Below are positions 41,701 to 44,700 of a stretch of 64,000 nt of DNA, piece by piece. The notes under the pieces were generated by a model. It saw only the letters and a program-made list of their open reading frames with translations. It did no database searches and was not told the DNA's origin. The stretch is from Lingula anatina (Eukaryota > Animalia > Brachiopoda), in assembly GCA_051362555.1 (NCBI GenBank), contig CM120645.1, positions 18,786,001 through 18,850,000 of the forward strand. The letters are read 5' to 3'. The translations under genes and the position numbers were made by a program. Position 1 is the first letter of the stretch; each line of letters opens with the position of its first letter.

Positions 41701-44700
41701 ACCTATCTTTAATGTACATGCACTTTTAAAAACTTTGTGGAGAACTCTGGTTACTGATCATTCCTATTCCAATATACCATGCTTGGCAGGTACATGGCAT
41801 GATAATTCATATACCATGACGTCCTCAACATAATTTAAAAATAAAAAGATTACTTTAGAGGCAAAGGTCCTCGGATTACAAAATTAATTATTTAAAAAAA
41901 CAAAAAAACAAACAAACAACAATTTCCATTAATTTTGGAAAATAGCACCTTTTATCACTCACTTTGATCTATCGTTTGCATTCCTATTATTTTTTATGCT
42001 CTGAGGGCCAATATTGTTAGATGTGTACAGTGAAGAAAGAGAAAAGTAGCAACATTTGAAAACTGTGCTTCATAATGCATTGTGCCATTCTGCTTAAAAA
42101 ATTATTCTAGCTTTAACTTAATTTCTTTCTTTCTATTTTGTGTGTGCTTAACAATATTTAAAATAAGTTCTTTTTTTCTTAATGAATATGCCCATGTTAA
42201 CCTGATGCAAGTTGTATTATGCTATAATTTGTGACTGAGTTCAGGTGAAAATATAAGTTCAATCAAAACCTAATTAGAAAAATCAGTGTTCGAAATTCTA
42301 CTCCTATCATGATGCAATGACAAATGAGAAATAATCATTAACAAACTGTCTTCTCATACCAACATTCCTTATTTCACTTTAACTTTAAAACAAGCACATT
42401 CTATAGTATACCTACAGTGTGATAGACATATTTCTTACATTTGGGGAAAAGATACAAAAACAGATATATTATTGCATTTAGATTGAAGCATAGTTAAATA
42501 TTGCCGAGTTCATTTTTAATGAGATAAATAAGTGGGTCTTTATACATAGAAGTCCTCACTCTCTTTTTTATGCAAATGCAAACAAGAATTAAAGCTTTCT
42601 AAAGAAAGATTAGAATAGCTGAGTCAGTGAAAAAGTATGCAATAATTCAGTGCATAGATTCTAAAAAATTCGAGACATATGGTCTTGTGCAACTTCCGAG
42701 ATCGGTTTCCTGGTGTTATAATTTTTTAAAAGAAATTTACCTAGGCCAGCCTTCAAATGTTGCAACAGTAAATAATGTTAGTAGACCATTGGGTACACTG
42801 TCAAAGTGAAGCGGGTTGTTCACCCACTCTCGCGGCAACAACCTGGGCAGATCAAGGTCACTACGCAAGTAAGAGATGAAGATGCCCCTGGAAATGAACA
42901 GTCAGGCTAATATATATAACACAGTTATTCTAAGACAACACAACACCACAATACAGTACAATACTCACCCTGGCCAACCTTCAAAAGTGGCAACAGTAAA
43001 TAAAGTGAGGAGACCCTGTGACACATCATCATAGTTCAGAGGGTTGTTCACCCACTCACGCTTTTGTTCGCTGGGGTTTGATAAATCATCCCCTGCATAC
43101 TCTATAAACCAGCCCCTAGAAAATGTGCACAGAAAAATAAAAATACAGTCAACATAAATTGGAAAGTATAAATCAACAAGGCAGCAAAGCTGTCAAATGT
43201 ACAGACAAAAAACAGGAAATAACTATGCACAAAATAGGCTACTGTCAATTCTGATGCAAAAGTACATTCCTTAAAATGTGTTTACAGTGTTGCATATATG
43301 CTGAAAAGTGAAAAAACAGCATAACTTCTACAATAATGGCCCGATCAGGCTAATTTTCGAACTTGACCTGCGTTTTATGAATATTCATCAGCTCTGTAAA
43401 TATTAAGCCAAAAAGTAAAACTGCCCTCCACTTATCGTGTTTACAATGAAAGTGCACGGCGTCGGCGACAGCGACAGTGACGGCGACGACAGACACAGGT
43501 GATGGCAATATGTACCGACACATCTGTACATATTTACTGTACTGTTTGAGAACAGTAAGTGACATGGTTTCTCTTAAATGGTCATCATGGGAGCAGTGCC
43601 CAAAATAGGTTTTTTTCAAATTTTGATGCAATAATACATAATGTTTAACAGCATAATGACCATCAATTTTTAATAATTAAATATTAGTATCATGGATATT
43701 CAGAAAATGTGACTAGCAAAGGTCTTCAGGCCCATGGAACTACAAAGTCACAACTTGAAAATGCCAAAATGTAAACAAGACAGCACTGTTCTGAAATGTT
43801 TTTTTTTTTTTTTTTCATTTTTAACAATTTTTTTTTAACATAAAACAAAATTAACAGGTTACTGCCATTTTTATACGATCAACTGAGAAAATTGATGAGA
43901 TGCGAAAAATATCAATAGAATAGTGTTTAATGTCCAATTTCCTCCATTCTAAGACTCTGAACATAGTGAATGATTGAATCTGACAAACTGCAATGATATG
44001 AGTTTATTTCCATTTTTGACACTTTATTACACAATACACGATAACAAGTTTACCATCATTTTTACATAATCAACTAACAATGTTGTAAAGATGCAGGAAA
44101 TGTCAAACAAACACTTTTACATGTCTTATTAGTTAAATAATGAGACTGTTAACATGCCTAAGAATTGAATCTGAGGAAATGTGAAACAAGACAGCTCTGT
44201 TCTGACATGGGTTTATTTCCATTTTTTAACACTTTTTTTAACATAAAACAAAATAAACAGTTTACTGCAATTTTTATATGATCAACTAAGAAAATTGATG
44301 AGATGGGAAAAATATCAATAGAATAGTGTTTAATGTCCAATTTCCTCCATTCTGAGATTCTGAACATAGTGAATGATTGAATCTGACAAACTGCAATGAT
44401 ATGAGTTTATTTCCATTTTTGACACTTTATTACACAATACACGCTAACAAGTTTACCATCATTTTTACATAATCAACTAACAATATTGTAAAGATGCAGG
44501 AAATGTCAAACAAACACTTTTACGTATCTTATTACTTCAGTAATGAGACTGTTAACATTGCCTAAGAGTTGAATCTGAGGCAATGTGAAAAAACAGCTTA
44601 ACTTCTAAAATAATGCCCCGATTATGCTGATTTTCGACCTCAACCTGCGTTTTAGTAAGATTGAGCACTCCTGTGAGTTTAATGACAATTGGCCCATCTG

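Follow-up and report, generated by a model that had tools for sequence, protein, structure and literature searches.

Analysis of a 64,000-nt stretch of the Lingula anatina genome (contig CM120645.1; hereafter, the window) revealed that the exon encoding the domain III pore loop of an L-type (Cav1) calcium channel is present as two adjacent copies, here termed A and B, which arose by duplication, have been kept under purifying selection and are used unequally, A being spliced and B skipped in all four RNA runs aligned. B most likely serves to tune either the conductance or the turret surface of the channel in some restricted tissue. Our preferred reading is narrower and is held tentatively, with somewhat less than even confidence: both copies are intact and A is spliced, and B would be a selected alternative used elsewhere, altering Ca2+ conductance and the Ca/Ba preference while leaving the preference for Ca2+ over Na+ in place.

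Gene identity and exon organization

On its minus strand the window carries the 3' portion of an invertebrate Cav1 gene, extending from the II-III linker to the C-terminus; the filter glutamate is present in repeats III and IV, and repeats I and II fall outside the window. Exons A and B scored 43-59 bits against Cav1 chains and at most 37 bits against Cav2, and the best match of both was to Cav1 over Cav2, Cav3 and Nav. The top human match was a Cav1 domain III in each case (Cav1.3 for A, E 5e-13; Cav1.1 for B, E 2e-15), and the exons adjoining the pair share 82-85% identity with named Cav1 proteins. Exon-by-exon comparison with 27 Cav1 proteins, most of them named, placed the nemertean Tubulanus first with 975 identities and a bivalve second with 945, the top score suggesting a gene of lophotrochozoan type. 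Gap-free alignments place both copies on the turret, P1 helix and filter of domain III in Cav1 chains of known structure, at residues 1091-1138 in Cav1.2. The coordinates of the pair and of related features are collected in Table 1.

Table 1. Features of the Cav1 gene in the window (positions in the window, position 1 being its first letter).
Feature	Position	Strand	Description
Exon A	42969..43115	-	Cav1 domain III distal turret, P1 helix and filter; conserved-type; Gly at filter+4
Exon B	42741..42887	-	Derived copy of the same segment as A; Arg at filter+4 (DCS position)
A-B intron, GT-AG, 81 nt, UG-rich	42888..42968	-	Sequence
(G/U)UGUUGUG motif, candidate CELF/UNC-75 element	42939..42946	-	Motif match
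CTGAC branch-point-like motif (predicted)	42901..42905	-	Adenine 67 nt from A donor
Intronic element complementary to last ~20 nt of exon B	42046..42065	-	Pairing prediction
Upstream exon, 53 nt, proximal domain III turret	45646..45698	-	Sequence and RNA joint
Downstream exon (P2 helix, IIIS6), whose first base supplies the end of the Gly/Arg codon	39842..40043	-	Sequence and RNA
IIIS1 pair, 130 nt each	60722..61523	-	61523-61394 derived; 60851-60722 conserved-type
IIIS5 pair, 108 nt each	47436..48793	-	48793-48686 derived; 47543-47436 conserved-type
Domain IV turret-P1 pair	26485..28159	-	28159-28068 conserved-type, 92 nt; 26582-26485 derived, 98 nt
IVS6-end/proximal C-terminus pair, 128 nt each	20747..21607	-	21607-21480 conserved-type; 20874-20747 derived

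The structural part of the initial annotation was borne out throughout. The two 147-nt exons that it placed over the domain III turret and filter, 81 nt apart, are both flanked by AG and GT and open in one frame, and the filter glutamate is retained in both translations. The charges counted over 49 residues agree with those given earlier (8 acidic and 2 basic in A, 5 acidic and 4 basic in B), and the reported glycine-to-arginine change four residues after the filter glutamate follows from the split last codon, which on joining to the acceptor at 40043 encodes Gly for A and Arg for B. The adenine of the CTGAC motif, described as about 65 nt from the donor, lies 67 nt from the A donor and 14 nt from the B acceptor. 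A and B are thus adjacent homologous exons of the same phase with intact splice sites, an arrangement expected of a tandem mutually exclusive pair.

Repeated sequence also occurs in this part of the gene. A minisatellite with an 11/33-nt period occupies window positions 40111-40618, just upstream of the IIIS6 exon. The intron after B contains a MITE-like inverted repeat (41314-41630) with 113-nt arms that are 94% complementary and 91 nt apart, over which RNA reads map on both strands with many mismatches to the window. An interspersed repeat with tandem units of about 159 nt covers 43130-45200, with related copies near 36400-37960; its RNA depth reaches about 1300, and since these reads are strand-biased and mostly 90-99% alike, they probably derive from other transcribed copies.

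Sequence divergence and selection between A and B

The two exons are identical at 32 of 48 residues, a similarity above chance. Comparison between the two copies of this one genome gave pS of 0.74 and pN of 0.27 (Fisher p 1e-6), the signature of purifying selection on the pair. Over the last 15 codons all 15 residues are identical, with seven synonymous and no nonsynonymous changes, and B has no stop, no indel and intact splice sites. Because its end codons are intact despite near-saturated synonymous sites, B would have been under selection for most of its history. The copies do not differ in the P1 helix or the filter, and 11 of the 17 differences fall within the first 18 residues, only seven of which are identical; neither exon encodes a cysteine.

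A quick tree search over 86 rows and 48 columns recovered A and B as sisters (SH-aLRT 87), with branch lengths of 0.14 for A and 1.22 for B, by which measure B has evolved faster. They also have in common residues that are rare among Cav1 strings, namely Leu11 (2 of 121), Val22 (1 of 121) and Leu35 (3 of 121), which fit a lineage-specific duplication, although gene conversion between A and B may be an alternative reading of these residues. The arginine at position 8 of B occurs in none of the 121 strings. Net charge is -6 in A and -1 in B, within a range of -8 to +2 for Cav1 strings; overall charge was rejected as a mark of a switch, values of -1 or higher being found in 26 and values of -6 or lower in 15 of the 121 strings.

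Exon usage in RNA

Four of the nine RNA runs for the species, of unspecified tissue, were aligned to positions 39728-45727, about 6, 6, 6 and 25% of each being read. The joint 45646>43115 into A, which the initial annotation had named as a check, was observed in all four runs (24, 30, 7 and 4 reads, 65 in total). Its counterpart 45646>42887 into B was absent from the 15 of 193 joints listed for these four partial runs, each with at least three reads, as were any other joint into or out of B and any A>B joint. Mean depth over the A bin was 26.1, 19.6, 9.4 and 5.6, and over the B bin 0, 1.32, 0 and 0.36, the two non-zero values corresponding to about two reads and one read; B depth is therefore at most about 6% of A depth. 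The near-zero depth of B beside that of A indicates that splicing from A normally skips B in these runs. The intron bin after B also has depth in runs X2 and X7, and unspliced transcripts could therefore account for the few B reads. Run X7 carries three mismatches to the window in the downstream exon and so represents another haplotype or population.

Candidate mechanisms of exon choice

Steric hindrance, earlier considered plausible as the basis of exclusivity, did not hold up as the main mechanism and was rejected on branch distance and on short introns elsewhere. The distance from the A donor to the predicted branch adenine (Table 1) exceeds the donor-to-branch threshold of about 50 nt given for vertebrates in excerpts of PMC7969005, and introns of 54-80 nt are predicted after the same exon in six other invertebrate loci. 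The sole point in its favour is that the A-B intron is the shortest of the 24 exon-to-exon intervals mapped, the next being 230 nt.

A CELF-type motif is a better lead. The A-B intron contains ten UGU triplets, which places it in the top 0.25% of 81-nt windows, and one of the three (G/U)UGUUGUG matches on the minus strand of the window. In Caenorhabditis elegans this motif is reported to recruit the CELF protein UNC-75, activating the upstream exon and repressing the downstream one (PMC3627589, in part), and at unc-32 exons 7a/7b a CELF protein on the intervening intron is described as repressing the downstream exon (PMC4165533, in part). By analogy, the UG element may activate A and repress B, a direction that fits the A-only RNA.

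Pairing predictions offered a further lead. The intronic element of Table 1 and the last 20 nt of B would form a 17-bp helix of -23.9 kcal/mol, which reaches -29.6 kcal/mol when extended over the B donor, as against -10.4 kcal/mol for the equivalent at A. Shuffles as strong as the B-end helix were obtained in 1 of 150 and 1 of 400 cases, and no comparable pairing element was found for 16 other exons. The helix was first noticed post hoc, among 112 inverted repeats, and in a global fold of 43260-42000 the B-masking stem did not form, its probability being near 0. A docking stem over the B donor is accordingly kept as a lead only; conserved long-range pairings have been proposed for insect Ca-alpha1D introns in the available part of PMC4174434.

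Distribution of the pair among other Cav1 genes

The A/B pair looks lineage-specific. Among the annotated isoforms of 85 proteins from 15 species (13 of them molluscs), one domain III turret string was found per species and no second string in any. Likewise, each of 20 mostly arthropod groups yielded one such string among the cluster members listed (at most 15 each), 102 of 103 proteins having the motif. Annotated isoform sets would miss an exon used as rarely as B. At the genomic level, none of 80 other invertebrate metagenome loci (the best 80 of 159 confirmed) contained a duplicated turret-filter exon; 42 of these 80 include exons on both sides, and those 42 represent 36 distinct peptides. 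An ancient conserved pair was not found, a single copy being seen in the isoform sets and in these loci. A homolog search by exon A alone returned no match, and a literature search with open-access-biased coverage, most subscription journals lying outside it, returned no report of a Cav1 domain III turret-filter exon pair.

Other duplications and variants were also observed. A Cav2-like ORF from JGI (P0351) reads through two tandem domain III turret-filter copies about 15 codons apart; the same exon may have been duplicated convergently there. An ENA contig of 567 nt (ORF P0308) encodes one complete domain III turret-filter segment of Cav1 and, after it, part of a second copy, from the P1-filter half. 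In another invertebrate Cav1 (locus L016) the IIIS5 exon is doubled, at 3597-3707 and 3982-4092; IIIS5 is doubled in insects and in the present window as well. In the barnacle Amphibalanus, Cav1 isoforms (P0506-P0519) vary in domain I, at the P2/S6 segment, and one of seven isoforms from one scaffold has a divergent domain II S5-turret segment.

Five duplicated exon pairs in one gene

A/B is one of five doubled pairs in this gene, the others encoding IIIS1, IIIS5, the domain IV turret and IVS6 with the proximal C-terminus. In all five pN is well below pS (p 7e-9 for IIIS1, 1e-11 for IIIS5, 1e-6 for A/B, 2e-6 for the last 18 codons of the domain IV turret and 4e-10 for IVS6/proximal C-terminus), and each consists of one copy nearer to the orthologues and one derived copy. 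Identities to Tubulanus for the conserved-type and derived copies, respectively, are 34 and 24 (IIIS1), 35 and 26 (IIIS5), 32 and 28 (domain III), 25 and 21 (domain IV) and 42 and 38 (IVS6/C-terminus). The IIIS5 and A/B exons have lengths that are multiples of three; those of the other three pairs do not, so that co-inclusion of both copies would shift the frame. At a dihydropyridine-site position, Thr in the derived IIIS5 copy stands against Asn in its partner and Gln in Cav1.2.

Were the five derived exons chosen jointly, one gene would give rise to a second L-type channel, which the DCS-ring arginine might render weakly conducting or non-conducting for Ca2+; we regard this as improbable. 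Such co-selection would yield two remodelled channels from one gene, in effect a paralogue made through splicing.

Expected effect of B on the channel

The residue four positions after the filter glutamate in repeat III occupies the DCS outer ring. According to excerpts of PMC2151654, the four DCS residues of Cav1.2 are DSED, and the repeat III residue is Gln or Met in Cav2 channels; that paper calls the site 'upstream', and the residue numbers in it and in the available text of PMC8184209 place it four residues C-terminal. In the same excerpts of PMC2151654, DCS mutations altered the Ca/Ba ratio, the anomalous mole fraction effect and conductance, and left reversal potential, Cd2+ block and monovalent selectivity unaltered, positive charge not being among the substitutions they describe. 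At the repeat I DCS site, D296K abolished the inward Ca2+ current of Cav1.1 (as reported in part of PMC8184209). Lys or Arg is found at repeat III filter+4 in none of 124 distinct spliced Cav1 strings, which have 12 different residue types at that position. Nor does either occur at a DCS site of any repeat in 229 redundant proteins matched by pattern.

These data point to our preferred reading, that B is likely a selected alternative. B would be included instead of A in a tissue or stage other than those sampled, and a CELF-type RNA-binding protein on the UG-rich intron would favour A and block B, perhaps assisted by the stem over the B donor. To judge from other channels, the arginine of B would make the outer DCS ring more positive, and the rebuilt turret would present alpha2-delta and peptide blockers with an altered contact surface. 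The L-type splice switch proposed in the initial annotation thus stands in so far as the pair is tandem and frame-keeping, B has been under purifying selection and its arginine lies at a permeation-shaping site; the use of B as a spliced exon did not appear in the RNA. Against this reading, the pair was seen in none of the 80 metagenome loci, so that B, the UG motif and the stem are represented by one genome.

It is also possible, with a lower probability than we give to a change in conductance, that B is real and tissue-restricted and leaves permeation as it is, only the turret surface being altered, with consequences for alpha2-delta contact, trafficking or peptide block. The concentration of differences in the first 18 residues, the identity of P1 helix and filter, and the arginine at position 8, absent from all 121 strings, are in line with this. 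In Cav1.2, alpha2-delta and calciseptine both touch ECL-III, the domain III loop surface (review PMC10761187, in part); this loop holds toxin-contact positions, and A and B differ at the equivalents of D1117 and A1123. In a simulation described in excerpts of PMC12146731, only the repeat I Asp bound the ion at the outer site; with the variability of the repeat III site, this suggests that the arginine of B may do little. However, the histidine of B at the D1117 equivalent is the commonest residue there (80 of 121 strings), which speaks against a special adaptation, and a positive charge at filter+4 that is absent from 124 strings is hard to deem neutral.

That B is a relic, once used and now silent or nearly so, its fast turret change reflecting relaxed constraint, is unlikely. 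The absence of a spliced B read in the four runs and the long B branch agree with such a loss, and the intronic element complementary to the end of B could have silenced it. Yet despite near-saturation of the synonymous sites, B has kept its last 15 codons, its splice sites and its frame, so that any loss must be recent; the four other pairs likewise have pN far below pS, and the runs in which B was sought were read only to about 6-25%, with tissue unspecified.

Least probable of these is a sodium-permeable or less calcium-selective L-type channel in the manner of Cav3 exon 12a, as first suggested by the initial annotation: B does gain arginines in the turret and at filter+4, and a single turret lysine suffices in LCav3 (excerpts of PMC9694082), but that lysine lies in another repeat, its turret position and the Asp it acts on both belonging to domain II (same excerpts), the filter glutamate is present in both copies, DCS mutations spare reversal potential and Cd2+ block (PMC2151654, in part), A and B lack the cysteines of 12a/12b, and the net charge of B lies within the Cav1 range, so that a sodium switch is unlikely and at best weakly indicated.

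Comparison with known systems

Most invertebrates have one Cav1 gene, and invertebrate Cav1 diversity arises via splicing. The A/B pair amounts to a naturally occurring exchange of the entire pore loop of domain III, one that brings a positive charge to a site where none of the 124 Cav1 sequences compared carries one. It offers a ready test of the role of the domain III site of the DCS ring in Ca2+ conductance, on which views differ: mutagenesis treats the four sites as a charge count, and simulation assigns the role to repeat I only.

Tandem exon duplication is itself well known in this superfamily, and A/B is the same type of event. Ten independent cases are counted for human and fly Cav genes in the available part of PMC9741552, which lists three mutually exclusive pairs each for CACNA1C and CACNA1D, two for Drosophila Ca-alpha1D, three for cacophony and one for Ca-alpha1T. 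The insect IIIS5 pair, known from annotated isoforms, strikes the same exon as the IIIS5 pair found here. The domain III turret-filter exon, by contrast, is single in the isoform sets examined and doubled here, and the present gene differs from those with other Cav pairs in having five, spread over domains III-IV and the proximal C-terminus.

The protostome Cav3 exons 12a/12b, as in Lymnaea LCav3, resemble A/B in being alternative extracellular S5-P turret exons of unlike charge. They belong, however, to domain II of a T-type channel and stop before the filter, their lysine acting on the domain II aspartate (PMC4436565, PMC9694082 and PMC6259924, each in part), whereas A/B belong to domain III of an L-type channel and include the filter. 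Exons 12a and 12b differ in length and cysteine number and are ancient across protostomes; A and B are equal in length, cysteine-free and apparently lineage-specific. A/B therefore lacks the structural marks of a 12a/12b-type pair, that is, location in domain II, an end before the filter and a difference in cysteines or length.

Exons 31a/31b of NALCN, another invertebrate four-domain channel, also double the exon over the domain III filter residue. In that pair the substitution, E to K, falls on the filter residue itself, giving EEEE or EEKE (excerpts of PMC4436565), whereas A and B both keep Glu and the charge change lies four residues on.

The non-conducting Cav1.1 of teleost muscle, in which the repeat I DCS site carries D>K (as reported in part of PMC8184209), resembles B in that an L-type channel sequence naturally carries a positively charged residue at filter+4. 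In teleosts a conserved Asp of repeat I is replaced and the change is fixed in the gene; in B it is a Gly at a variable site of repeat III, in an alternative exon. A jointly chosen channel of derived exons, if weakly or non-conducting, would be an invertebrate parallel to the teleost channel.

The nematode unc-32 exons 7a/7b share with A/B the (G/U)UGUUGUG motif in the intron between the members of an exon pair, although the gene and phylum differ and CELF control of A/B is a candidate drawn from the motif. Set against these systems, tandem duplicated Cav exons are known, and the present case is a selected and apparently lineage-specific duplication of the Cav1 domain III pore-loop exon.
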